From contig CAWGYA010000001.1 of the NCBI GenBank assembly GCA_963826715.1, positions 36,715 through 100,714 on the forward strand: 64,000 bases of DNA, given 5' to 3'. Both the position numbers and the translations under genes were made by a program. The stretch comes from Candidatus Bathyarchaeota archaeon. Lineage in GTDB: Archaea > Thermoproteota > Bathyarchaeia > Bathyarchaeales > Bathycorpusculaceae. The notes under the pieces are model-generated. The model saw only the letters and a program-made list of their open reading frames with translations, was not told the origin of the DNA and ran no database searches. Of this stretch, positions 23,939-61,768 are shown piece by piece; the first letter of the stretch is position 1, and each line of letters begins with the position of its first letter.

Positions 23939-24156
23939 ATATCAAATTCAATTGGTGAACTTAAAATTATCTAATCAATGTATGACCAAAGGTTTCGCAT
24001 TAACTTTTAACTTACAATGCGCCCATGTAAGTCCTCGAATAAAATCAGTGAATTCAAGCATAATTTTATGCATTTATTTGGCGGGACATTAACCGAACAT
24101 TTAATTAAAAAGTTTAAAGGCTTTTTTGTTCTTTGTTTTATCTGGCGATTAATATC

Positions 24157-26531
24157 TTGAAAGTTGTTTTTTGGCTTTTAGACATTAACTCTAAAATCGA
24201 TAAGGACAAGAATACGATTGAGTTGTGGCTGTGGGGAATCAATGAGGCGGGTGAGAGAATATTACTTGTAGAACGCGACTTCACCGCATACATCTATGCT
24301 ATCTTGACAGAGAACGCGAATTGCCAAAAAATTTTAGATACTATCTGTAGGATTTATGGCACAGCTATATCTAAGACAGAGGTTGTCTCCCGTAGATTTT
24401 TCGGGAAGCCATACACATCCATCAAGATCAGTTACAAAAATGCAATTTCCCCAGAGAAGATCGCCAAAAAACTTCGTAGCATCGAAGGCATTAAAGATTG
24501 CCTTGAAAATGATATTCGCGCCGCAATGCGCTACCTCATCGATAATGACGTGGTTCCTTGTAGCTGGATTGAAGTCAATGTACTGGAAGAAAAATTAGCC
24601 AAGGGTATAAGGGTTGCCAAAGTTTACACAATCAAATCGCCCCTCAAACAGCTTGAAAGATCTGAAGTGCCGGCACTTAGGATTCTGAGTTTCAATTTAA
24701 TTTGTTACAGTCACAATGGCGCGCCCAAAGCTGATCTTGATCCGATCTTGATGATTTCTACTTCCACCAACATCGGGGAAGAACACCAATTCATACTGGG
24801 CGAAGACAAAAACGATAAAATAATAATCGAAGAATTCATCAATTACATAAAAAGTTTTGATCCAGATGTCATCGCCAGCTATGGTGCCAACAGTTTAGAC
24901 TGGGCTTACCTACGAACTCGAAGCCATAAAAATGGCATTAAAATGATTTTTGATCGTATAGGCATCGAGCCTCATAGCAGCTTTTATGGGCACGTTTCCG
25001 CCACTGGTCTAATCAATTTAGATTTGGCGGATTTTATGGATGTTTTTCCGGAAATCAAAGTACACAATCTCAGAAACTTTGCTGAGCATTTGGACGTTTT
25101 GAAGGAGAGCCGAAGCTTCATTGAAGAGATGGATTTTGCAAATTATTGGGACGACTACGGTAAACGCTACGAGCTTGTTAAGTTTGGATCTGATAGCGCC
25201 TGTAAAGTAAACAGTTTAACAGTTTTACTGTTGGATTTTGCTATGCAACTCTCGATATTAACGAGTCTTCCACTGGATTATGTAATGACAGCAGCTCCGG
25301 GCTTTCGAATAGAGTGGTATCTTATCAAGCGGGCGATGAAGATAGGTGAGCTTATACCGAAGCGAGTTAATCATCCCTATGTGCCTTACGCAGGCGGATT
25401 AGTTCTCTCACCTAAACCAGGCTTACATGAAAACATCGGAGTCCTAGACTTCAAGTCAATGTACCCTAACATTATGCTAAAGTACAACCTTTCGCCTGAC
25501 TCCTACATTGCACCCAACCAGACCATACCTCCCGGTGGTGTTTACATTGCGCCTGAAGTAGGGCATTGCTTTCGTAAATCCCCTCCCGGATTCTACAAAG
25601 AAGCCCTAACAAATTTAATCAAGGTTCGAAACGTCATACGCCAAAAAATAAATACACTAAATCCACAAACAATTGAATATCACGTTTTGGAAGCACGACA
25701 AAAAGCTGTTAAAATCATGACCAATGCCGCCTACGGATACTCGGGATGGGTTGGTGCAAGATGGTACCTTAAACCCGTAGCTGAAGCTGCCTCAGCATGG
25801 GGGAGACATATCATTACCTTAGCAGCGCAGATGGCGAAGAAAGCGGGCTTAGATGTTATATACGGAGACACAGACAGCCTATTCATCCAATTCGATGAAA
25901 GCAAAGTGGAAAAGCTGCGGCATGAAATCGAGAGTAAGTTTAAGATGGAAGTAGAAGTTGACGAGACCTATCGACGAATCTTCTTCACTGAAGCAAAAAA
26001 ACGCTATGCAGGTCTACGACAAAATGATACTTTAGACATCGTTGGTTTGGAGGTTATCCGTGGTGATTGGGCAATGGTGGCAAAGCAGGTTCAAGAAAAT
26101 GTACTGAAGATTATCCTAAAGGAAAAGTCGCCCAAAAAAGCAGAGGAGTATGTTAATAAAGTGATAACTGTTTGCGTAACAGAAAAGTTCCTTTGAGTGA
26201 CTTAATCATCTGGAAAACACTTACTAAGCCTCCTGAGAAATATGCCATCAACACACCTCATGTTGAAGCTGCGAAGATGCTCAGGAAACGGGGCTGGCGT
26301 CTTACAAGTGGTGATAAAGTCGGCTACATTATAGTAGCGGGTAAAGGGAATCTCTTTAACAAAGTAAAACCCTATGTCTTTGCTAAACCAGAAGATGTAG
26401 ATGTAGAATATTACGTTACTAATCAGGTGTTACCTGCTGCTACGAGAATACTTGGTTATTTTAACATAACCAAGAAAGAATTATTGAAAAAAGAAACTAA
26501 TGAAATCCGCAACCTAATGGATTACCTTTAG
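24157..26531 (+). pseudogene. polB3: Family B DNA polymerase (PolB3-type), split by a frameshift near 26170 (real or assembly error)
   Basis: DFKSMYP, K...N..YGY, YGDTDS and KKRYAG in ORF 24133-26196; thumb (LIIWKTL, PHVEAA, YYVTNQVLPA) in overlapping ORF 26172-26531; start at TTG 24157 (MKVVFWLLD). Confidence 0.85.
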
Positions 26532-36456: not shown

Positions 36457-37190
36457 ACTTTATCTTCCTTCTGGCTCTCTTTCTTTTCGGCTATTATCTT
36501 CTTTTTCGTTTTAACTATTGCGGCAGTTACTTTAATGTTCTTTGGACAGACAAGTGTACACATAAAATAGCTTTTACAGCCCCAAATACCATGCGGTTTC
36601 TGAAGAATAGCTACCCGCTCCCCTGAATCCTTATAGCGGGAATCAAAAATGTAGCGTTGCGCTCTTAAAACCGCTGCTGGGCCCAAAAATTCTTGGTCTT
36701 GTTCAGTTAAAACCGGGCAAGCACTATAACAACATCCGCAGAGTATGCATTTGAGGGCGTCATCGTATAGGCTCCGTTCCTCAAGACTTTGCAGTCGCTC
36801 TTTATCTGGGAAACCAAGTGCCGAACCATTAAGAGACCTTGGCCCGATGGAGTTTAAGCGTTTAAAAAAAGGCTTAAGATCAACCACTAAATCCTTAATC
36901 ACCTCAAAATACCTTAGGGGTTCAATAAGAATTTCTTTCTTGAAATCGAACTCTTGGATTAGTTTTTGGCAAGCAAGTGCGGCTTGCCCATTAATGGTCA
37001 AGCCGTCGCTTCCGCATATGCCATGTGCACATGACATGCGGAAAGAAAGCGAGCTATCTTGGGTTTGACGAATACGGTTTATACAATCCAACAAACGCTC
37101 TGTGGGTTGTGCTTCGATTTTGAAAATGTCATAATGAGGATGCTCGTCAGTTTGAGGGTTGAATCGGTAGACTTTGAGACTGATTTGCAT
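36453..37190 (-). CDS. sdhB: Succinate dehydrogenase/fumarate reductase Fe-S subunit
   Basis: SCAHGICGSD, CILCGCCYSACP and C.....C...CP motifs. Confidence 0.93.
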   Translation of the reverse strand: MQISLKVYRFNPQTDEHPHYDIFKIEAQPTERLLDCINRIRQTQDSSLSFRMSCAHGICGSDGLTINGQAALACQKLIQEFDFKKEILIEPLRYFEVIKDLVVDLKPFFKRLNSIGPRSLNGSALGFPDKERLQSLEERSLYDDALKCILCGCCYSACPVLTEQDQEFLGPAAVLRAQRYIFDSRYKDSGERVAILQKPHGIWGCKSYFMCTLVCPKNIKVTAAIVKTKKKIIAEKKESQKEDKV

Positions 37191-49137: not shown

Positions 49138-50061
49138 TTACTCTATGAATTGTTCAAGGTATTCTACGATTAGCGCATACGCCTGCGGCCCATCAGGACC
49201 AGATCTAACGCCGTTTTCGCACCTAATCAGCATTTCACCTTCAGATTCTGACTTCGGCTCATTGTATTTAATCCGATAAACACAGCCCGTTACCAATTTG
49301 TTATTAATCTGGAATGTCAATAGAGGAAACTTTACGCCGGGTAAAAACAAATCATATTTTTCCCCCGGGCGAGGCTCAATAATAAAGATCTTAAGTTCAC
49401 CGAGTTTGAAAATACTTTCTAAAAGTGAGCTGTTAAATGGTGGAAAAGAAGATTGTGAATTCGACTTAACTTTTTTTGTTACCTGATTTATCATATCTAC
49501 AAGCGTATCTATGCCCCAGAGTTCAATTCCGTTTGATTGAGCGTCGATGGCGGCTTTTTTTGTGAAAAATGTGGTGGCTATAACGATGGATTTGTTGCAT
49601 TCATAGATGTGTTTTGCACTTTGAGCTGTCAAGACGATCGTATCAGAAACAACGAGGTTTCTAGAGTATTTGCGAGCTTGAACTGAGATGCGCTCTCCAT
49701 CTTTGTTGGCAACTAAGTCTATTCCTGAGGCTGTTGGATAACTTTCCACTTCAACCCTAAAACCTGATTCTTGTAGCAGCCACTTTATGAAAAGCTCAAA
49801 TTCTTTTTCTGAGAGAGAATCAATAGCATATCCGGGGGTTTGAGAGGATGCTTCAATGCGGATATTTTTTTCCAATATAGTTCTGAGAGTTTTTCGAGGA
49901 GGATTTTTTGGAAGAAGATATAGTTTTTCAATTCGGCTAGCCAGTTCCTCAGCTTTGAAGATGGGTAATTGTAGTCTGTCCTCCAAAAAATCTACAAGGT
50001 CAATGTTTGGGTACCTTGCAACTATTTCCTTGAGTAAGCCATTAAGGTGTAAATTATCCAT
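49138..50061 (-). CDS. Mrr-like restriction endonuclease domain protein
   Basis: EFELFIKWLL...GF, GIDLVA, VQARKY, FTK.A...A....IELW; extra N- and C-terminal domains. Confidence 0.85.
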   Translation of the reverse strand: MDNLHLNGLLKEIVARYPNIDLVDFLEDRLQLPIFKAEELASRIEKLYLLPKNPPRKTLRTILEKNIRIEASSQTPGYAIDSLSEKEFELFIKWLLQESGFRVEVESYPTASGIDLVANKDGERISVQARKYSRNLVVSDTIVLTAQSAKHIYECNKSIVIATTFFTKKAAIDAQSNGIELWGIDTLVDMINQVTKKVKSNSQSSFPPFNSSLLESIFKLGELKIFIIEPRPGEKYDLFLPGVKFPLLTFQINNKLVTGCVYRIKYNEPKSESEGEMLIRCENGVRSGPDGPQAYALIVEYLEQFIE

Positions 50062-50062
50062 G

Positions 50063-51433
50063 TTAAGTCTCCGTCTTATGTTGGGCGTGTTTAGGGCACA
50101 ATTGTCCCCGAAATTCAGCGGTGTATTTTAAATTGATTTTTGAAAAAACCTTTCCGCAAACACTACATAATCCATAGTGATTGATACAAACGCTTGAGTT
50201 ATCGTGACTACATTTGAATTCAAGTAAACGACTATGTTTTTTTCCACAGACAGAACAGATAAAACCCGAATCTGATTCAATATATTCTTTTAGAGTTTCA
50301 TCTATTGTCAACGTTGCTTTCTTGGAATAAATTTTTTGGGTTTCTATAGATTGCCTAATACAATCAGCGCAGACATATTGCTCATCATATGTTGCATAAC
50401 CTTCTGAGAAGGTTTTTCGGCAAATAGGACAGGTCACTTCTACGTTATGGTTTATTCCTAACATTAGAGAGGAGTGTATAGTTGAGTTGTTGTCGAGGTT
50501 TACTTCAAACTTGATTTTGAAGGTGTTGATTATGAGTAGATTTAGGAACTTTACGGTTATATGGGTTATATAGGATTCTTCTTCGCGTTTTAGAAGTGCT
50601 TCATAATTAGCTTGCCATTTTGGGAAATCAAAATCAATTTTTTTTGATATTGCATGTTCGCGGCGTTCTCGGCTAAGCCTTTTATCGAAGCTTTGAAGTT
50701 TAGCTTTTTTATCTTTATAAAGTGGCAAGTCAAAGAGCACCAGTTTCTCTCTAAGAAGGTTATCCATGCGTTCATCTACAACTGCTTTTAGTTTTTCGAA
50801 AATGTCCACTTTGAGTTTTGATTTATAATCTTCAATAGAAATTGTACAATCGTTTTGAAAAATTTCATCGCTATACTCGCTGACGCGTAAGACGTTGAAC
50901 TTTTCGTTTACTAGTAGGGTAATAATTTCTTGATTTTTTGATCGTAACTTATTTTGAAAATTAGCTGAGAAATAAAATTTGAAAAAACGTACAGGTTCCT
51001 TTTTTACAATGTTTACTGAAGTAATTTTGCCATTATTTACTAGGTGGCAACAGGGCTGATTTTTTACGCAGATGTTGACAGTTTCTTTCTCCAAATGTAC
51101 TTTTTCGCAGTCTATACAAGCAAAAGAGCCTTCTTTGAAGTGTCTTGAGATTAAAGCGGCAGGGTCTTTTGGTTTGAGCAAAACTTGACTAAGCACTCCT
51201 TCTTCTAGGCAGTTATGCAATATCTGTTGAAACGTCTGGCTTCCTATTGCAATAAGAGGTATTTTTTTTTCTTTTGAAAGTGCAAAATTATAGGTGAATT
51301 CTTCAGATGCCGGTTTATCTTGGTAGGTTACTTTGAAGGTTTCGTTTGATAGATTGTTAATTGTGCCTTTTCTAGATTCCACATATTCCTTAATGAAATG
51401 GCGAATTTGTATGTCAGTTGGTTTTGTGTTCAA
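50063..51433 (-). CDS. Hypothetical multi-Zn-finger protein, possibly YqhG-like
   Basis: Several CxxC/CxxH pairs (CIDC, CPIC, CADC, CSVC, CINH, CPKH); overlaps the helicase stop codon. Confidence 0.75.
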   Translation of the reverse strand: MNTKPTDIQIRHFIKEYVESRKGTINNLSNETFKVTYQDKPASEEFTYNFALSKEKKIPLIAIGSQTFQQILHNCLEEGVLSQVLLKPKDPAALISRHFKEGSFACIDCEKVHLEKETVNICVKNQPCCHLVNNGKITSVNIVKKEPVRFFKFYFSANFQNKLRSKNQEIITLLVNEKFNVLRVSEYSDEIFQNDCTISIEDYKSKLKVDIFEKLKAVVDERMDNLLREKLVLFDLPLYKDKKAKLQSFDKRLSRERREHAISKKIDFDFPKWQANYEALLKREEESYITHITVKFLNLLIINTFKIKFEVNLDNNSTIHSSLMLGINHNVEVTCPICRKTFSEGYATYDEQYVCADCIRQSIETQKIYSKKATLTIDETLKEYIESDSGFICSVCGKKHSRLLEFKCSHDNSSVCINHYGLCSVCGKVFSKINLKYTAEFRGQLCPKHAQHKTET

Positions 51434-53418
51434 TCAAGAATCCCTTGGGTGAATTTTTCGGCTAATTCTTCATTTTCTTTTGATATATTCAAGTTGTTGG
51501 CGAGTTTTTCGAGTTCCTTTGTTATGTCAAAGCGAGTGGTGCTTCTGAGCAGAATTTCACCGATGGTTTTTTGTATATCTTGAGAGCCCTCCTTTAAATC
51601 GGCTAGAACCGTTTCCATCTTTCCAACGGTCATTGTGAACAAATCTATTTTTTGATAGAGAATATGCAGCACATAGTCGTCGATTGTGTCTTTAATGCAT
51701 AAGTTAAAGATGGTAACGTCGCGGTCTTGTTTAAACCGGTGTATTCGACCTATACGTTGTTCGATCTTCATTGGGTTCCAATGTAAATCGTAATTAAACA
51801 TTACACAGCAATTCTGCAAGTTTAAGCCTTCAGCAGCAGCATCAGTGGCAACAAGATACCTGATTTCACCAGTCTTAAAGCCCTTAATCACGGTTTCTCG
51901 CTCCTCCTGATTCATATCCCCCAAATAAACAGCAGCTCTTCCGAATTCTTTGGATAGCATTTCCTTGATTTTATGGGCGGTAATTTTTCGCAGACAAAAT
52001 ATTAACGCCTGCTCAGTTGGTGCTTCGTTTAGAACATTTCGAAGCAACTCCATCTTTGCACTCTTGACTTTTCCTGCCATCTTGATTAATTCGTTGGTGG
52101 CTTCTTTCTCGAGGGGGAAACGCTGCTGTCTTTTAGTTAGCGACTCAATGGAGGCAGCTGGGGAACTAGAAAAGGATTGCTGTAGAGTAATTGCTTGAAA
52201 AACCAAAATCGCATTGCTCTGAGATGAGCTAAATTTTCGTGTAGGATTCTCCGCGATGAGAGCCTCAATTGTCTTGAACCTGTTTTGACTCACATCACGC
52301 AAATATTCTGTAGCTTGGTCAATGAATTCTCGTTCTTCAAGGTTTGCTTCGAGCGTCCGAGATTCAACACAGCGTTTTGTAAATGGAATACCTGTTTCTT
52401 CCCTGCGGGTGCGGCACATTACGTCCCGTAGGATTTGCCTCAAGGAGCTAGCTTGATCTTGGCGAAGCACACGGCTTCTTGTATCCTCGGCGAATTGGGA
52501 AATAAAAGCTCGTTCACTTCCCAAAAGTCCCGGCTGAATCAAATCTACAATGCTATACAAATCAGTGAGCTTATTACATAGGGGTGTTGCAGTGAGCAGT
52601 AAAAGATGATTTTTTTGCAGGTTCCCAAGGAATGCTCGGCCTTTGCTGTGGGTGTTTCTAAATGCGTGAGCTTCATCTACCACAACTAAATCCCATGTTC
52701 GGTTTGACAGTTTGTCGAATTTTCTGGTCAAAAAATTATGTGAGCATATAACTCTTTCATCGCACGTAAGGTCAACGTGTTCCTTAGGGTTGTTAGCAAC
52801 TGCGAATGTTTCTCCAAATTTTTCTGCCATTTCAGATTTCCATTGATTTAGCAAGCTTTTGGGAGAAACAATCAGAATTGAATTAATCTCTTCACGGAGA
52901 AGTAATTCTTTCATAATGAGACCTGCCTCGATCGTTTTTCCAAGTCCCACTTCGTCGGCTAGAATCGCATTTGCATTCATTTCGTTGTTTACTTGAAGAG
53001 CTGTCTGCACCTGGAAATTATAAGGAATAAATTTTGCGCGAATAGCATCAAGGGAGACAAGATAGGTGATTTTGCGTGTTTGTTTTAATTGTATTGCAGC
53101 TAAGTTTAGTCTAAATTTTTGGTAAGATGAAAAATGGCTTGTTTGTATCCTTTTTTTAATGTCGTAGGGGTCATTTATCGATAGAAAAAACCGCTGTTTT
53201 TCCTCCTTAGCCCTTTCTTGTTGCGCCTTTCTCATTTTATATATGGAGGTAAGATCAAATTCGAACAAAGAAGGCTTTCCAATTGAGTGATCCTTTAGAG
53301 TAGAGCCTTTTTTTCTAGAAGTTCCCCGTCTCTGAGATTTCTTAGACAGAGAAGATGCTTCTTTACGTGATATCTCAATATTATTGTGTTCCGAACATTT
53401 TTCGTAAGCCTCATCCAT
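51430..53418 (-). CDS. SNF2-family helicase (YqhH/RapA-like)
   Basis: ILADEVGLGKTIEAG, VVDEAH, LLLTATP, EGLNLQ and YDLHWNPMKIEQRIGRIHR motifs; start uncertain (53418 or further downstream; track gives 53565). Confidence 0.92.
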   Translation of the reverse strand: MDEAYEKCSEHNNIEISRKEASSLSKKSQRRGTSRKKGSTLKDHSIGKPSLFEFDLTSIYKMRKAQQERAKEEKQRFFLSINDPYDIKKRIQTSHFSSYQKFRLNLAAIQLKQTRKITYLVSLDAIRAKFIPYNFQVQTALQVNNEMNANAILADEVGLGKTIEAGLIMKELLLREEINSILIVSPKSLLNQWKSEMAEKFGETFAVANNPKEHVDLTCDERVICSHNFLTRKFDKLSNRTWDLVVVDEAHAFRNTHSKGRAFLGNLQKNHLLLLTATPLCNKLTDLYSIVDLIQPGLLGSERAFISQFAEDTRSRVLRQDQASSLRQILRDVMCRTRREETGIPFTKRCVESRTLEANLEEREFIDQATEYLRDVSQNRFKTIEALIAENPTRKFSSSQSNAILVFQAITLQQSFSSSPAASIESLTKRQQRFPLEKEATNELIKMAGKVKSAKMELLRNVLNEAPTEQALIFCLRKITAHKIKEMLSKEFGRAAVYLGDMNQEERETVIKGFKTGEIRYLVATDAAAEGLNLQNCCVMFNYDLHWNPMKIEQRIGRIHRFKQDRDVTIFNLCIKDTIDDYVLHILYQKIDLFTMTVGKMETVLADLKEGSQDIQKTIGEILLRSTTRFDITKELEKLANNLNISKENEELAEKFTQGILD

Positions 53419-53875
53419 ATGCTTAAAAGGCGAAGAATATTTTGGGCTTGCGCCACATTTATCATTGGAGTTCAAAGTCAAGATAATCGCGGCTATAGTC
53501 CATTTCAAATATAAAAAGAGTGAGTTTTCAAACTGTTTATCGTTAAGTTCAATTGTGAGGTTCAAACTTTGATTTGATTGTTTTTAAGATTGTTACAAGC
53601 TCTTAAGAGATTGTTCCCGAATAAAATATTTTGTTTTCAATAGAAGAAATGACTTGGTGGGGGGTTGCTTCTTCTTCTTTCAGGTCAAAATATTTCGTTT
53701 AGGTCTTGATTTTTAGTTTTTTAATGCAGATATTTTTTGTAGCATTATTGGTAGCTCTGCTTGGATCGACTCTACGGTAAAAAGTTTACTGCAAACAAGT
53801 ATAAAATCATGCTCAATGTGACCTTTTTGTAAAAAGGTTTATTTCACTGCATGCACCTTTGATGTGAAATTGCAG

Positions 53876-56607: not shown

Positions 56608-56851
56608 AACTGAAGCCTCTTCTTTTATAATATTATTCTGTCTTCAAAACTAATAAGCCCTTGTTACTGTATCCATACAATCACAATTTTTTATGTAAAT
56701 TATTTTTAGGCGGCAAATTAAAATTGCTAGATTTTTTTTGTTATAGGTCACTTTCATTCGCCCCTCTACTGTTTAGCTATGTCTTTTGAGGGGCATTTTT
56801 AAATATCAAAAAAGCCGCTTTGCAAATCCTTTAAAAACTGGGAGAAACAAG

Positions 56852-57571
56852 ATGATAAGAACCGAGTTAGCAAAACCTACACCCCAATATCTTCTTTCAC
56901 TAAACCTAAGAAAAGTAAACGATTTCTTTCCAGGCTTTACCGAAGGTGAATTTTCATTAATTAAGGGTTCCTCAAGCACAGCCATAGCGTCCTTGTTATG
57001 TGTTAGGGCACAGCTATCAAAGCAGATAGGAGGATTAAGCAGCAACGTTGTGTTTATCGATGGAGGAAATACCTTTGAGCTATACCAGATCTCAAAACTT
57101 GCCCGCATCCATCATTTAGAAGCCAAACAGGTTTTAGACAACATCTTCATATCAAGGGCGTTTACAGCCTACCAAATGGTTGACCTTATAATGGATAAAC
57201 TAAAGTTAGTTATTGAGAAATTAAATTCAAAAATAGCGATTATTTCAGATCTTTCAGGCTTCTTCTTAGATAAGGACATACAAGCATATGAAGCAACCCG
57301 ATTATTCAGCCAAGTTACAACTTACCTTTCAAATTTTGCCAAAGAAAGACAGATCGTTCTAATAGCAACGTATCTTCCTCATCGCAATGAGAAAGTGAAT
57401 AATGATTTTCAAGCGATAGCAGCAACCAGATCAGATGTTGTTTTGTCTCTAAGAACAACAAAGCATGATAGAGTGATTAGTTTAGATAAGCATCCCTATC
57501 TCACTGTGGGTTCGATCGAGTTGCCATCTGGGAATTTGCGTTTAACGGATTTCATTGGAGAGAGCGCATAA
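56852..57571 (+). CDS. RadA/RecA-fold protein with degenerate Walker A (PolB2-associated)
   Basis: VVFIDGGNTF and I.ISRAFTAYQ motifs; GKT absent; ATG at 56852 after GGAG. Confidence 0.85.
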   Translation: MIRTELAKPTPQYLLSLNLRKVNDFFPGFTEGEFSLIKGSSSTAIASLLCVRAQLSKQIGGLSSNVVFIDGGNTFELYQISKLARIHHLEAKQVLDNIFISRAFTAYQMVDLIMDKLKLVIEKLNSKIAIISDLSGFFLDKDIQAYEATRLFSQVTTYLSNFAKERQIVLIATYLPHRNEKVNNDFQAIAATRSDVVLSLRTTKHDRVISLDKHPYLTVGSIELPSGNLRLTDFIGESA

Positions 57572-57837
57572 TGGGCAAGACAGTTGAATCCTATCGCTTG
57601 GCATTGGAAGATGAGATCAGCCGCTGGAGCGGTTTTAAGAAAGCTTTAAGAACTGAAGATAGAGAAGCCTTTGAAGCAGTTATGGATACATGTCGAAGCT
57701 ATGCTTCTGCAGGAAGCAACGCGACTCAACCCATACTATTTGAGCCTATAGTGATTTCGATTTTAGTAGCTCAACAAAAAAAGATACATCGACTAGAGAA
57801 GCGGTTAGATGCAATCTCACAGTCAAAGACGAGTTAG
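57571..57837 (+). CDS. Small helical protein of the PolB2 cassette
   Basis: MGKTVESYR.ALE.E...W..F.KALR.EDRE.F; overlaps both neighbours. Confidence 0.85.
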   Translation: MGKTVESYRLALEDEISRWSGFKKALRTEDREAFEAVMDTCRSYASAGSNATQPILFEPIVISILVAQQKKIHRLEKRLDAISQSKTS

Positions 57838-60100
57838 AGGCTGGCTGTTTGATGTTTATCCTTCTGTCTTTGGAACAATGACTGTTTGGATAATAACTGA
57901 GAATGGTCAAAGAGTACGGTTAACTGATAAGTTTCAGCCAAATATATACATCTCAGGCAAGCAAGGGGATATAGAGCGCTTAGCAAATGATTTCTGCTCT
58001 AACCAAACCATCGCCTCATGGAATTTTGTGTTAAAGTATGCAAATCCAACTGACTTCGAGAAATCCAGAGTCTTAGAAGTAACTTTGAAGGACTGCAGAA
58101 AAATCTCCGCATTTACCAACCAAATCCTACGGTTGGGTGATTACCTTCGCTATAGAGTACATAACTGCGATTTACAGGGCGATAGAATGTACCTATTTTC
58201 CAATGACTTATTCCCCCTTGCTTACTTGGAGGTTGAAAGTGCTAAATTAGAACTCAAGTATCAACTGCTTGACAGCATCGAGAGCATAAATTACTCTATT
58301 CCGCATCTCAGGCTAATGGAGTTAGGATTAAATATTGCAAAAAAAAATAAAATTGCCAGTCTCGAAGATCCTATAGAAAGCCTCCAGGTTACTCAAGACG
58401 GGGAGTCTATAATTATTGATGATGGAGCAGAAGAGGATAAACTTCTTGAGTTGGTTAAAGTTGTTAAAGAATTGGATCCTGACATTGTCTTAACGCGAGG
58501 CGGCGATTCTTTTATTTTCAGCTATTTAATTCAACGTGCTAATCATAAGGGTATTTTGGATAAATTTTTGCTGGGGAGGGATGACACGCCATTTGTGCCT
58601 AAACCAACGGTAGGTAGAACTTTCTTCTCTTATGGGCGCACCTTCTATAAAGCGCCCACAATTAGGTTATTCGGTAGAATTCATGTTGACAAAAATAACA
58701 CGTTTATTTTAAATGAGAGCAGCTTTCAAGGAATGTTTGAAATAGCTCGAACCTGTCGAGTTCCTCTTCATACTGCAGCGCGCTCATCAATCGGTTCTAT
58801 TATGTCCTCGCTTGAGTTTTATCAAGCCTTCAAAGATGATATTTTGCTTCCCAGAAACAAGAGCATCCCCGAAGCATTCAAATCAGCTTATGAATTGCTG
58901 GTGGCTGATCGGGGAGGCTTTGTTTATGAGCCAAAAGTTGGAATACATGATTCAATCGGAGAAGTAGATTTTTCTTCGATGTACCCAAGTTTGATGGTCA
59001 ACAATAACATCTCTGCTGAAACGGTACTTTGCGAGTGCTGCCCAAACTCTAAGCTTCGCATTCCAGAGCTCAATTATAACATATGTGAGAAACGCCAAGG
59101 AGTTGTCCCAAAATCAATCCAGATTATCCTTACTAAAAGGCAGCTCTATAAACGATTAAAAGAGGAAACACACAGCGCTGAGCTTAAGGAAATTTATGAT
59201 AATCGTCAGGTTGCTTTGAAGTGGATTTTGGTTACGTGTTTTGGCTATTTAGGTTATAGAAATGCCAAGTTTGGAACTATTGATGGCCATATTGGTGTTT
59301 GTGCGTTTGGCAGAGATTCTTTTCTTAGGGCTGCTCGCAGGGCGGAGGAAGCAGGATTTGAGGTGGTGCATGGAATTGTTGATTCACTTTGGCTAAAGAA
59401 AGAAAATGCATCTGCTGAAAATTACAAAAGGTTTTGTAGTCATATTAGTGATGAGATAGGTGTTGTTTTAAATTTCGAGGGCAAATACAAATGGATTGTT
59501 TTTCTACCATCGAGAATGCATCCAAATGTTGGGGTGCTAAATAGGTATTATGGAGTTATGGAAAATGGCAAGGTCAAAGCTAGAGGTTTAGAGGTACGTA
59601 AAAGGGACACTCCAAAGTTTGTTTACAATGCTCAAATGGAAATGATTAATGTTTTAGCAGGAGCTGATAATTCAAGCGAATTTATGTATAAAATCCCCGA
59701 AGTTATAGATGTAGTTAGAAAATGGCGCTGTAAACTTTTGGATGGAGATGTGCCCGTCTGGGATTTAATCATTAAAAAGCATTTATCAAAAGATCCTAAG
59801 CACTACAAACAACATGTTAGCCAAGTTATAGCCGCTGAACAGTTAATCAAAGAAGGATCAGAAATACATGCTGGCAACAACGTGGCGTTCCTCTTTACTG
59901 ACGCAAAAAACAAGCAGTATAACCGAAGAGTCTTGGCTAGCCAGTTTGTGGATGAAGATGTAAACGTAGACAATAAGAGGTATCTCATTTTACTTTACAC
60001 TGCGGCAGCTAATTTACTAAGTTTTGAAGGCTATACTGCAAAATCTGTAAGTGAACTTATTAATGGATTGTCAAATAGCAGCATAACACGCTATTTATAG
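57809..60100 (+). CDS. polB2: Family B DNA polymerase, PolB2 subfamily
   Basis: DFSSMYP, KWILVTCFGYLG, HGIVDS in place of YGDTDS, NRYYG. Confidence 0.9.
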   Translation: MQSHSQRRVRGWLFDVYPSVFGTMTVWIITENGQRVRLTDKFQPNIYISGKQGDIERLANDFCSNQTIASWNFVLKYANPTDFEKSRVLEVTLKDCRKISAFTNQILRLGDYLRYRVHNCDLQGDRMYLFSNDLFPLAYLEVESAKLELKYQLLDSIESINYSIPHLRLMELGLNIAKKNKIASLEDPIESLQVTQDGESIIIDDGAEEDKLLELVKVVKELDPDIVLTRGGDSFIFSYLIQRANHKGILDKFLLGRDDTPFVPKPTVGRTFFSYGRTFYKAPTIRLFGRIHVDKNNTFILNESSFQGMFEIARTCRVPLHTAARSSIGSIMSSLEFYQAFKDDILLPRNKSIPEAFKSAYELLVADRGGFVYEPKVGIHDSIGEVDFSSMYPSLMVNNNISAETVLCECCPNSKLRIPELNYNICEKRQGVVPKSIQIILTKRQLYKRLKEETHSAELKEIYDNRQVALKWILVTCFGYLGYRNAKFGTIDGHIGVCAFGRDSFLRAARRAEEAGFEVVHGIVDSLWLKKENASAENYKRFCSHISDEIGVVLNFEGKYKWIVFLPSRMHPNVGVLNRYYGVMENGKVKARGLEVRKRDTPKFVYNAQMEMINVLAGADNSSEFMYKIPEVIDVVRKWRCKLLDGDVPVWDLIIKKHLSKDPKHYKQHVSQVIAAEQLIKEGSEIHAGNNVAFLFTDAKNKQYNRRVLASQFVDEDVNVDNKRYLILLYTAAANLLSFEGYTAKSVSELINGLSNSSITRYL

Positions 60101-60317: not shown

Positions 60318-61067
60318 GTGCAAAAAATTAAATCTAAAATTTTGGTTTCTTATGTCACTTCAGCTATTTTGTCACTTATGGCTTACTTGCTATTCAAGTC
60401 TAGTTCTGCACAGATGATGATGAGCCCAACTCCAACTCCCTCGAATGATTCGTTAGTTTCAAATGTTTTAGTAGTGATAACCATTATTGTATCAATAACC
60501 ATTATTGTGATTTACATTTTCTATTTAAAAAACAAGAATAGAAAAATAACCAGATTTTCTGATTCTACAATCTTGGCAGTCAAAGAAAAACAACCAATAC
60601 TTGAATCAAAAATAGGCTCCAATGACCACGTTACAAAACCTTATGATATCTTTCTGTGCTACAAAAAAAGTTCAGGTAAAGATTACGCAGATCATTTGAA
60701 AACAGGTTTAGAAGAGCTTGGATTCCACACATTTCAAGACTGCCGGGACATTCCGCTAACTGTTGAAACTGATGAAGGATGGGCTTGTTCTCGGGATAAA
60801 GCAGTTGAGGAATGTAAATATTTTATCCTAATTATGACGCCAGGGTTCCAGTTATCTCGCGAAGTAATCAAAGAAATAGCTATGGCAAGAAAACAGGGAA
60901 ACAAGACTTTTATATATTTCAGACATCGAAGCATGGCAAGGAATATCGTGATTAATTTAGGAGATGAGCTTTTAGATGTTGGAAAACTTGAACAGGTGTC
61001 TTTTGAGAGTAAAGAGGAACTTCTGCGGCTTGCTCTTAACATCATTCAAAAGGCTAAAAATCAATAG
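60318..61067 (+). CDS. Membrane-anchored TIR-domain protein
   Basis: Two N-terminal hydrophobic segments, then YDIFLCY...D.A..L...L...G...F.D...FILIMTP.F..S..V.KEI..A. Confidence 0.82.
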   Translation: MQKIKSKILVSYVTSAILSLMAYLLFKSSSAQMMMSPTPTPSNDSLVSNVLVVITIIVSITIIVIYIFYLKNKNRKITRFSDSTILAVKEKQPILESKIGSNDHVTKPYDIFLCYKKSSGKDYADHLKTGLEELGFHTFQDCRDIPLTVETDEGWACSRDKAVEECKYFILIMTPGFQLSREVIKEIAMARKQGNKTFIYFRHRSMARNIVINLGDELLDVGKLEQVSFESKEELLRLALNIIQKAKNQ

Positions 61068-61117: not shown

Positions 61118-61768
61118 ATGCGAAGATTACATATTTTCCTCACTATTCTAATTGCTTCTATAGCGCTTCTTGTTAGCTTTGTCTTAGTAAGTTTGTATTT
61201 GGCTGCTTCAACGCCTTCTTACTATCAGTCAAGCTGGATTAACCAAATGTGGCAGAGTATGGGAATAGGCACAACACCAGGAAACAACGGTATGGGTGGA
61301 ATGATGGGAGGAGATACTACGGCGACTAATCTTTGGATAATTCCAGTGGGGGTAATAGCTGCAGTAGCAATCGGTTTGATTGGTCTAAGCTTCTATTTAA
61401 TTATTCCAGAAATCAGAAATAATCCTAGAACCTGCACAACCGGAAGCAATGTAAATAGTTCGGCGGCTTCAGTACAAATCTCAGGTTTAAAAAATTCTGA
61501 TTCAAATTCTGCGGTTAATTCTTGTAATGTTCTACTAAAAACAATGAAACCTGAAGAACAAAAAGTGCTGAATGTATTGATTGATCATAACGGAAAGTAT
61601 TTACAGAAATATGTTGGCAAAGAAGCTGGGCTTAGTCGACTTAAAACTCATCGGATTGTTGCTCGTTTTGCGGAACGTGGAATAGTTTCAGTGAAACCGT
61701 TGGGAAATACAAATGAGGTTTCTGTCTCCGATTGGGTTCTAACTAATAGCCCAGAAAAAAGTAGTTAA
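61118..61768 (+). CDS. Membrane-bound wHTH protein (COG2512-like)
   Basis: Two TM helices, Met/Gly-rich loop, GKYLQK......GLSRLKTHRIV.RF.ERG. Confidence 0.8.
   Translation: MRRLHIFLTILIASIALLVSFVLVSLYLAASTPSYYQSSWINQMWQSMGIGTTPGNNGMGGMMGGDTTATNLWIIPVGVIAAVAIGLIGLSFYLIIPEIRNNPRTCTTGSNVNSSAASVQISGLKNSDSNSAVNSCNVLLKTMKPEEQKVLNVLIDHNGKYLQKYVGKEAGLSRLKTHRIVARFAERGIVSVKPLGNTNEVSVSDWVLTNSPEKSS

Follow-up and report, generated by a model that had tools for sequence, protein, structure and literature searches.

What kind of machine would an archaeon build from an SNF2-type ATPase, a cysteine-rich protein, and a protein with an Mrr nuclease fold that are encoded by three closely packed genes? The question is raised by a locus in a 64,000-nucleotide (nt) stretch of DNA, hereafter the window, from a soil-derived Candidatus Bathyarchaeota archaeon of the family Bathycorpusculaceae (positions 36,715 to 100,714 of the forward strand of contig CAWGYA010000001.1, assembly GCA_963826715.1). 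The four DNA datasets listed for this stretch stem from a single soil study; no RNA dataset is listed for it. An earlier note, made from the letters of this DNA alone, had proposed the trio as a translocase-driven, possibly modification-dependent restriction complex. Our analysis indicates that the trio is a motor of an already known type, here in three pieces, and that it is probably no classical restriction system. With moderate confidence, we favor the reading that the three proteins form one three-chain ATP-driven DNA translocase complex of the RapA or YqhH-YqhG type, which would serve as an accessory DNA-protein remodeller.

The genes are coupled tightly on the minus strand (Table 1). As read from the sequence, the stop codon of the SNF2 gene and the TTG start of the middle gene overlap by 4 nt (GAT TGA / TTG), and the middle gene is separated from the Mrr-fold gene by a gap of 1 nt (TAA c ATG), just as the earlier note had it. 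The nominal SNF2 start at 53565 is merely the start of the longest open reading frame (ORF). Because relatives carry stop codons opposite SNF2 residues ~19-24 in the alignment, and because the TATA-box-like element TTTTTATATTT lies inside the nominal ORF, the true start is probably the TTG at 53481, which would give a protein of ~683 amino acids (aa). The "FLY" stretch at TTTTTATATTT is retained in relatives despite the frame-breaking stops, and this element is a candidate promoter of the three-gene operon.

Table 1. Features of the three-gene locus, with positions in the window
Feature	Positions	Strand	Remarks
SNF2 ATPase gene	51430-53565	minus	longest ORF, 711 aa
TATA-box-like TTTTTATATTT, candidate operon promoter	53507-53517	minus	inside nominal SNF2 ORF
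Middle gene, whole	50063-51433	minus	456 aa, TTG start
YqhG-like module, middle-gene residues 1-312	50498-51433	minus	hhalign with YqhG; predicted fold of RapA Spacer and C-terminal domain
Cys-cluster insertion, middle-gene residues 100-135	51029-51136	minus	C106, C109, C122, C128/H130; absent from YqhG proper
C-terminal putative zinc-finger region, middle-gene residues 332-449	50087-50440	minus	13 invariant Cys/His
Mrr-fold gene	49138-50061	minus	307 aa
Mrr_cat domain, Mrr-fold gene residues 80-191	49489-49824	minus	PF04471; D115...Q128-A-R130

The product of the 711-aa ORF carries the Pfam domains SNF2-rel_dom (2.5e-36) and Helicase_C (2.4e-28), and its motifs GLGKT, DEAH, and QRIGR are intact and align with their counterparts in Escherichia coli RapA, which bears out the intact SNF2 ATPase claimed before. 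BLASTP aligned residues 176-653 with RapA residues 151-642 (25% identity, E 2e-33). The NCBIfam model of RapA (NF003426) scored 172.6 bits against a cut-off of 576, with positions 96-643 of its 959 alone covered. As judged from these alignments, the protein appears to correspond to the motor core of RapA, namely domains 1A, 1B, 2A, and 2B. Its N-terminus is of low complexity and poorly conserved, and the alignment with RapA begins at RapA residue 151 or at model position 96. A CxxC-x15-CxxC motif is present near this end in relatives (loci L011, L012, and L014; e.g., genome G001), and the window protein has lost two of its four Cys residues (residues ~33-57).

No Pfam family matched the 456-aa middle protein above its cut-off; PF11079 (YqhG) did not match it at E<=0.1, and found none in the genome either. 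The earlier note had pointed to the yqhG-yqhH pair of Bacillus and had proposed a profile comparison with YqhG, and both suggestions proved sound. In hhalign, the Bathyarchaeal alignment matched a 12-member YqhG alignment with a probability of 87% (E 4e-6, 244 columns; middle-protein residues 5-312 against YqhG profile positions 3-271), and the Clostridial alignment did so with a probability of 92.9%. Besides, a bridging protein of 680 aa (P0182) scored 43.8 bits with Pfam YqhG, against a cut-off of 25, and shares CxxC arrays and the C-terminus with Clostridial middle proteins (BLASTP against P0158, 3e-48). In all seven Bacillota loci that were enlarged, the YqhG gene is immediately preceded by an SNF2 gene. 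An ESM Atlas search returned YqhG as no more than a 0.78 lead for the middle protein. On profile evidence, then, the middle protein is a distant relative of YqhG and, by the curated threshold, not a member of PF11079.

What distinguishes the middle protein from YqhG is its cysteines. The many CxxC and CxxH pairs that had been noticed in it resolve into the Cys cluster at residues 106-130, which falls in a gap of the hhalign alignment with YqhG, and the 13 invariant Cys/His residues near the C-terminus (within residues 335-449). In the relatives from Clostridia and Haloarchaea, the C-terminal region has grown into long arrays of CxxC, and the family alignment (A5) gave weak RING/B-box-like zinc-finger matches to PDB profiles (E 6.5e-4). 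The Cys cluster may likewise bind zinc. PDB profile matches of the YqhG alignment were at chance level.

The predicted fold of the middle protein leads to RapA again. An AlphaFold2 model of residues 1-330, built on a 43-sequence alignment spanning all groups, had a predicted local distance difference test score (pLDDT) of 84.7 and a predicted template-modeling score (pTM) of 0.70, with pLDDT values of 61-66 in the Cys-cluster stretch. Modelling the full protein on just 18 aligned sequences had a poor outcome (pLDDT 54.3), which was not used. All of the top five Foldseek matches of the model were E. coli RapA (E 7.5e-7 to 1.8e-3), and the next match had an E value of 0.16. VIA-align placed model residues 1-307 on RapA residues 706-968 (Z 8.5-11.0, 219-236 residues), the next match having a Z of 5.2. 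A fold comparison with YqhG had also been proposed; the fold search returned RapA as the best fold, and the kinship with YqhG came from hhalign. According to PMC8501970, RapA is laid out as an N-terminal domain (NTD), the core 1A/1B/2A/2B, a Spacer, and a C-terminal domain (CTD); within the Spacer, D744 touches the zinc-binding domain of beta-prime. Since the SNF2 protein aligns to RapA 151-642 and the modeled fold of the middle protein to RapA 706-968, the two proteins would jointly cover RapA except for the NTD, as a motor of the RapA/YqhH-YqhG type split in two.

The third protein was said to bear an Mrr-type domain flanked by unknown domains, and this description holds. Mrr_cat (PF04471) was found with an E value of 3e-19 (69.7 bits against a cut-off of 21), preceded by an N-terminal helical part and followed by a C-terminal domain (residues ~200-307) without an assigned fold. 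The protein gave a profile match to AF1548 (1y88; E 2e-4), whereas phmmer with the protein against the PDB and an ESM Atlas search with residues 196-307 gave no match. The catalytic motif of Mrr is D ... (E/Q)xK. With the motif positions set by alignment to AF1548 and to the canonical copy of Halocatena, the window motif reads D115...Q128-A-R130; D and Q are retained, Lys is replaced by Arg, and the D...(E/Q)xK triad is incomplete. The canonical Lys is absent from 34 of the 35 family members examined, the window copy included: it was found in 0/20 copies of the genus to which the window's genome belongs, 0/8 of Clostridia, 0/4 fusions, and 1/3 of Haloarchaea. The polar E/Q position is kept in 11/20, 0/8, 1/4, and 1/3 copies of the same groups, and the acidic Asp position in 16/20, 7/8, 2/4, and 3/3, respectively. 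In nine of the 20 genus copies and all eight Clostridial copies, the E/Q position is hydrophobic.

The ratio of nonsynonymous to synonymous substitution rates (dN/dS) was 0.12-0.19 for the Mrr-fold gene (five pairs), 0.04-0.15 for the middle gene, and 0.03-0.04 for the SNF2 gene; these values are rough, as dS was mostly saturated, and four values were lost to saturation and one to an in-frame stop. An SNF2 value of 0.81 (dN 2.7) for the pair G007-G025 was disregarded as an artefact of unequal ranges of the high-scoring segment pairs. By this measure, the Mrr-fold gene is under purifying selection despite its nonconserved catalytic triad. This bears on the thought that the trio might be a decaying relic without current function in this genome, to which the lost catalytic residues, pseudogenised copies in relatives, and the degenerate N-terminal CxxC...CxxC motif of the window SNF2 protein could be taken to point. 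All three window ORFs are nevertheless intact and translationally coupled, the ATPase motifs are intact as well, and the dN/dS values retained, though rough, span 0.03-0.19; we consider a relic very improbable.

Because natural fusions of the middle protein and Mrr_cat exist (P0157, P0170 [weakly], and a Bathyarchaeal protein of 784 aa, P0053), the Mrr-fold protein is likely to work with the middle protein. Complex prediction for these two proteins gave a score of 0.56, and the best control scored 0.00. The mark applied to this score is reached by 116 of 157 solved complexes and by 2 of 215 mismatched pairs; scores of <=0.60 take in 18 of the 157 solved complexes, but also both of the passing mismatches. 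The prediction runs share at least 66% of their contacts, and the pLDDT of the partner is at least 65. The model thus weakly suggests that the two proteins form a complex.

From the gene architecture, homology, predicted fold, motif status, and distribution of the trio, we infer by analogy how its chains may assemble, on what substrate they may act, and in which physiological role. The SNF2 protein would be the motor, moving on duplex DNA, and the first ~310 residues of the middle protein would dock on it as a separate chain, as the Spacer and CTD do in RapA. This YqhG-like module would be extended by the inserted Cys cluster and, toward the C-terminus, by three to four zinc fingers. The Mrr fold, without the canonical Lys, would most likely be a DNA-binding or target-recognition subunit seated on the middle protein, and not a restriction nuclease; the zinc fingers and the noncatalytic Mrr fold would bind DNA or the target. 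By analogy with RapA, the output might be the dislodging of a protein that has stalled, the most plausible candidates being RNA polymerase and other tightly bound complexes. YqhH of Bacillus subtilis, also called HepA, is presented in PMC7385302 as a little-characterised RapA homologue said to interact with RNA polymerase. As an accessory function, the trio may have come in by cross-domain transfer, been passed on mostly vertically within one Bathyarchaeal genus, and often been lost.

The motor may also be read as an accessory of DNA repair or recombination, providing Rad54-like remodelling for RadA or at damage-stalled complexes, with an Mrr fold that reads branched or damaged DNA. The best PDB matches of the SNF2 protein are the Sulfolobus Rad54-like protein SsoRad54 (1z63), which comes first, and RapA. 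SsoRad54 stimulates RadA strand exchange (PMC2677860), and a yqhH knockout of Bacillus thuringiensis is UV sensitive (PMC10054049), which counts in favor of the RapA-type reading as well. The match to 1z63 is, however, confined to residues 173-365, in the first lobe, which is conserved. In four of ten loci, genes of repair are present no more than 8 kb from the trio, encoding an MrfA-like helicase and an RNase_H_2 exonuclease (L011), an MrfA-like helicase and an MPG glycosylase (L012), AlkD (L017), and Hel308 directly beside SNF2 (L020), and the window has a Rad51-like gene and a PolB gene at a distance of 3-6 kb from the trio. Set against the 118 flanking ORFs, ~6-7 repair-type genes are at most a mild excess, counted without a computed background, and no repair gene is consistently linked to the trio. 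A repair role is, in our estimation, rather improbable as an explanation of its own; it overlaps with the translocase explanation and does not exclude it.

The repair-type genes themselves show some further features. Both MrfA-like helicases (L011, 11983-15581; L012, 10-2208) combine DEAD, MZB/DUF1998, and an HRQ1 winged helix, and in L011 the helicase and RNase_H_2 genes adjoin the SNF2 gene in divergent orientation. In the window, the genes for the Rad51/RadA-like ATPase (261 aa) and a family-B DNA polymerase (763 aa) are packed closely together with an ORF of 88 aa, all in one direction (56786-60100, plus strand), perhaps as a polymerase module of mobile-element or damage-tolerance type; the polymerase matches DNA_pol_B at 3e-34 and, weakly, an exonuclease domain. 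A second PolB of 687 aa is encoded at 24133-26196.

We surveyed the distribution of the trio, and the recurrence of its genes together, which the earlier note had proposed as a check, was observed in three groups. Within the genus, the middle protein occurs in 21 of 36 other genomes, and 24 genomes representing 20 further genera of the order gave no match. When 251 genomes from across the class were searched by profile, it again turned up in this genus alone (9 of the 12 genus genomes drawn) and in 0/21 of the family's other genera, with one weak zinc-finger-only match elsewhere. All three genes are present in 19/19 genus loci having an intact middle gene, and they stand in the same order in the ten loci fetched with wide flanks. 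None of five high-quality genus genomes without the middle gene has the Mrr-fold gene: three gave no profile match to the Mrr partner, and two gave weak matches of the Mrr domain only, in other proteins. The concatenated-trio tree and the YchF tree have the same terminal clades within the genus.

Outside the genus, 48 proteins matched at E<=1e-3 among 1.84 billion representatives, most of them fragments and some of 660-745 aa, the fusions P0157 and P0170 among the latter. The arrangement recurs in eight loci of Clostridia metagenome-assembled genomes, where a ~340-aa Mrr_cat gene lies downstream, and an SNF2 gene, whose product is 38-47% identical to that of the window, lies directly upstream in all seven loci having upstream DNA. 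Furthermore, three haloarchaeal megaplasmids, of Halocatena, Halorhabdus, and Haloferax, carry the trio in the same order, the SNF2 gene being followed by one for a large protein rich in Cys and one for a "restriction endonuclease"; the Haloferax record leaves the Cys-rich gene unannotated. The Halocatena middle protein matches the family profile A5 end to end (hhalign 99.85%, E 1e-30, 569 columns), and its SNF2 protein shares 32% identity with that of the window over 591 residues. The Clostridial middle protein gave no match in 50,697 phage records.

The haloarchaeal trios also have a wider neighborhood in common. The middle protein of Halorhabdus is 1095 aa long, and in Halorhabdus and Haloferax a ~870-950-aa DEAD/DEAH helicase gene and a gene for a ~280-aa hypothetical protein are divergent from the SNF2 gene. 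An ADP-ribosylglycohydrolase is annotated at all three haloarchaeal loci viewed (among L122, L123, L125, and L126), and giant UvrD-domain proteins are annotated in Halorhabdus and Halocatena.

Several observations weigh against a RapA-type remodeller. The TM-scores of the fold match to RapA are low (0.28-0.43), with a root mean square deviation of 6.6-9.1 A, and a profile-sequence hhalign comparison of alignments A5 and A6 with E. coli RapA found no similarity (probability 0.08); the relation of the middle protein to RapA is one of predicted fold. The Tudor-like NTD, through which RapA binds RNA polymerase and inhibits its own ATPase, has no detected counterpart in the RapA alignments. Archaeal RNA polymerase differs from the bacterial enzyme and is of the eukaryotic type, which makes the substrate assignment a guess. 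The distribution of the trio looks accessory, not housekeeping. In the pooled searches, 25 of 42 other genus genomes have a match to the middle gene and 17 have none, nor does any of 45 genomes from other genera of the order or family; three copies are decayed (G020, G023, and G443, the last being full of stops), and the SNF2 gene is frameshifted in G010. Uniform, housekeeping-like conservation, named beforehand as an outcome that would speak against defence, was thus not what we observed. The YchF clade of 10 genomes to which the window's genome belongs is rejected by the trio tree (p-AU 0.0058; YchF is a single marker of 406 columns), an incongruence that hints at transfer or rate artefacts, and the nearest relatives of the trio are in Bacteria and on haloarchaeal plasmids. 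Finally, the Halocatena copy retains the canonical Mrr motif D...QAK, and the window copy keeps D115 and Q128 with Arg for Lys, such that some residual nuclease activity is conceivable.

Much of this would suit a defence function, for which the gene neighborhoods are informative. In the window, the trio is flanked on one side by genes for PF01877 (COG1325-type), Rpp30, and Pop5 and on the other by one for Ribosomal_L15e, as assigned by Pfam. These neighbors were said to be usually adjacent in archaea; we can uphold this for the genus, in which rpl15e and COG1325-rpp30 stand in direct succession on one strand in 25 of 29 rpl15e loci of other genomes. Because rpl15e is inverted in the window and the trio lies between it and COG1325-rpp30-pop5, the trio occupies the breakpoint of a rearrangement peculiar to this genome. 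A methyltransferase had been reported absent, and none was found among the 29 window ORFs picked for scanning, which include few from positions 1-40000 and no short ORFs. Around the trio in ten Bathyarchaeal loci, the 118 flanking ORFs are mostly housekeeping genes, with TFB adjoining the trio in two loci and lying 3 kb off in a third. These neighborhoods are not defence islands. Further along the window, a gene at 60318-61067 (plus strand) encodes a predicted membrane protein that bears TIR_2 (4.1e-09) at its C-terminus, possibly a signalling or defence-type gene, and the next ORF (61118-61768) encodes DUF7343.

An anti-virus or anti-plasmid system would set the SNF2 motor on foreign DNA, with a zinc-finger scaffold and an Mrr-fold subunit that either cuts, via the Arg or a neighboring Lys, or senses foreign or modified DNA; it would resemble a ZorD-like SNF2 and Mrr enzyme split over three genes. 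The patchy distribution with its decayed and frameshifted copies, the sparse cross-domain spread over Bathyarchaeia, Clostridia, and haloarchaeal megaplasmids, the partial incongruence with the YchF tree, the intact motif of the Halocatena copy, and the position of the window trio at a breakpoint all accord with it. In addition, the Mrr domain matches the C-terminus of ZorD models (4.6e-14) and PDC-S02, and the haloarchaeal plasmid trios lie within ~10-15 kb of annotated McrC-family, AAA ATPase, HNH endonuclease, and giant UvrD-type helicase genes and of IS elements, the last point telling also against a mere remodeller. Yet the lack of the canonical Lys in all but one member and the hydrophobic E/Q position of every Clostridial copy argue against a cutting enzyme, and neither a methyltransferase nor a defence gene stands beside the trio among the scanned window ORFs. 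At the loci of the ten relatives, the sole candidate among the flanking ORFs is one PIN protein. No PADLOC model matches the middle protein, and the PADLOC matches of the SNF2 protein (DrmD at 2.6e-72, BrxH, HmaA, and ZorD) are generic, the same list being obtained with a bona fide YqhH (6.4e-76). The genome has no MotA/ZorA-type gene, the phage records gave no match, and the trio tree agrees with the species tree in its terminal clades.

Taken together, the lost Lys, the housekeeping neighborhoods, and the RapA architecture speak against the restriction complex proposed in the earlier note. Because of the haloarchaeal copies, one with an intact motif, and the counts of loss and decay, we still grant a defence-like role a minor but appreciable probability, and defence in the form just described is possible though unlikely. 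A related notion is that the YqhH-YqhG-Mrr trio is an undescribed, horizontally mobile genome-guarding system of Archaea and Bacteria that strips replication or transcription machinery from its target, mostly without cutting; this we find doubtful. In such a system, a RapA-like motor would be aimed at foreign or aberrant DNA by the zinc-finger scaffold and an Mrr-fold sensor, and cutting would have survived only in rare members, the Halocatena plasmid copy being one example. If such guarding were true, it would be the first function for the widespread YqhG family.

The reading as a RapA-type translocase would matter in several respects. YqhH and YqhG are a widespread gene pair with almost no functional data. 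If the YqhG-like module is the RapA Spacer and CTD as a separate chain, the partner of a RapA-type motor would have a testable docking and regulatory role. If the reading is true, RapA-like machines would exist in archaea despite an RNA polymerase of the eukaryotic type, and a nuclease fold without its catalytic Lys would have been recruited as a noncutting subunit, for which single members with an intact Mrr motif offer a natural comparison. We found no publication on YqhG as a rear module of RapA or on the trio, in a search made mostly without subscription journals. What is new here is the haloarchaeal plasmid copies, one of which has an intact nuclease motif, together with the counts of loss and decay.

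Among known systems, the claim that the trio matches none with a name is in keeping with the model scores. DrmD of DISARM, BrxH of BREX, and DpdE of Dpd share the SNF2 core with the window protein (PADLOC E 1e-72 to 1e-47), but their NCBIfam scores were far below the cut-offs (245.6 against 950 for DrmD_b, 222.5 against 610 for DrmD, and 199 against 500 for DpdE), and no DISARM, BREX, or Dpd partner gene, methylase, or PLD domain was found among the window ORFs scanned. In type I Zorya, ZorD is an SNF2 helicase fused to an Mrr-like nuclease. It resembles the trio in pairing an SNF2 motor with an Mrr-type fold, and PADLOC ZorD models match both proteins at the domain level; the window genes differ in being unfused, with a YqhG-like gene between them and the catalytic Lys replaced, and the NCBIfam ZorD score was 71.8 against a cut-off of 1500. 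ZorA/MotA (PF01618) gave no match in the 96%-complete genome, and ZorB and ZorC had no separate search.

E. coli RapA is alike in its motor (residues 151-642) by sequence and in its rear module (706-968) by predicted fold. The window system differs in having two chains, no detected counterpart of the NTD, and a rear module without sequence similarity; it adds the putative zinc fingers and an Mrr-fold subunit, and its partner polymerase, if any, would be archaeal.

Close in gene arrangement is YqhH (HepA)-YqhG of Bacillus, in which an SNF2 gene is followed directly by a co-directional partner gene whose product is homologous over its N-terminal ~300 residues. Of 201 Bacillota genomes sampled, 20 had a match to PF11079, 18 of them above the cut-off, and the SNF2 proteins of Bacillota YqhG loci share 32-35% identity with that of the window over ~560-600 residues. 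At seven canonical YqhG loci, the four next-gene products scanned gave no Mrr domain, and the other three loci have no same-strand third gene; the third genes at two such loci (L044 and L045) are unrelated to the Mrr-fold protein. At one Bacillota locus (L046, 101-1708, minus strand), the pair of SNF2 and the 680-aa YqhG-like protein is followed by a 535-aa Helicase_C_3 protein and no Mrr, and because of this protein the third position after the SNF2 and YqhG-like pair appears exchangeable. Thus, the window trio differs from the Bacillus pair in a partner that falls below the Pfam YqhG threshold and bears a Cys-cluster insertion and putative zinc fingers, in a third gene with an Mrr fold, and in its host, an archaeon.

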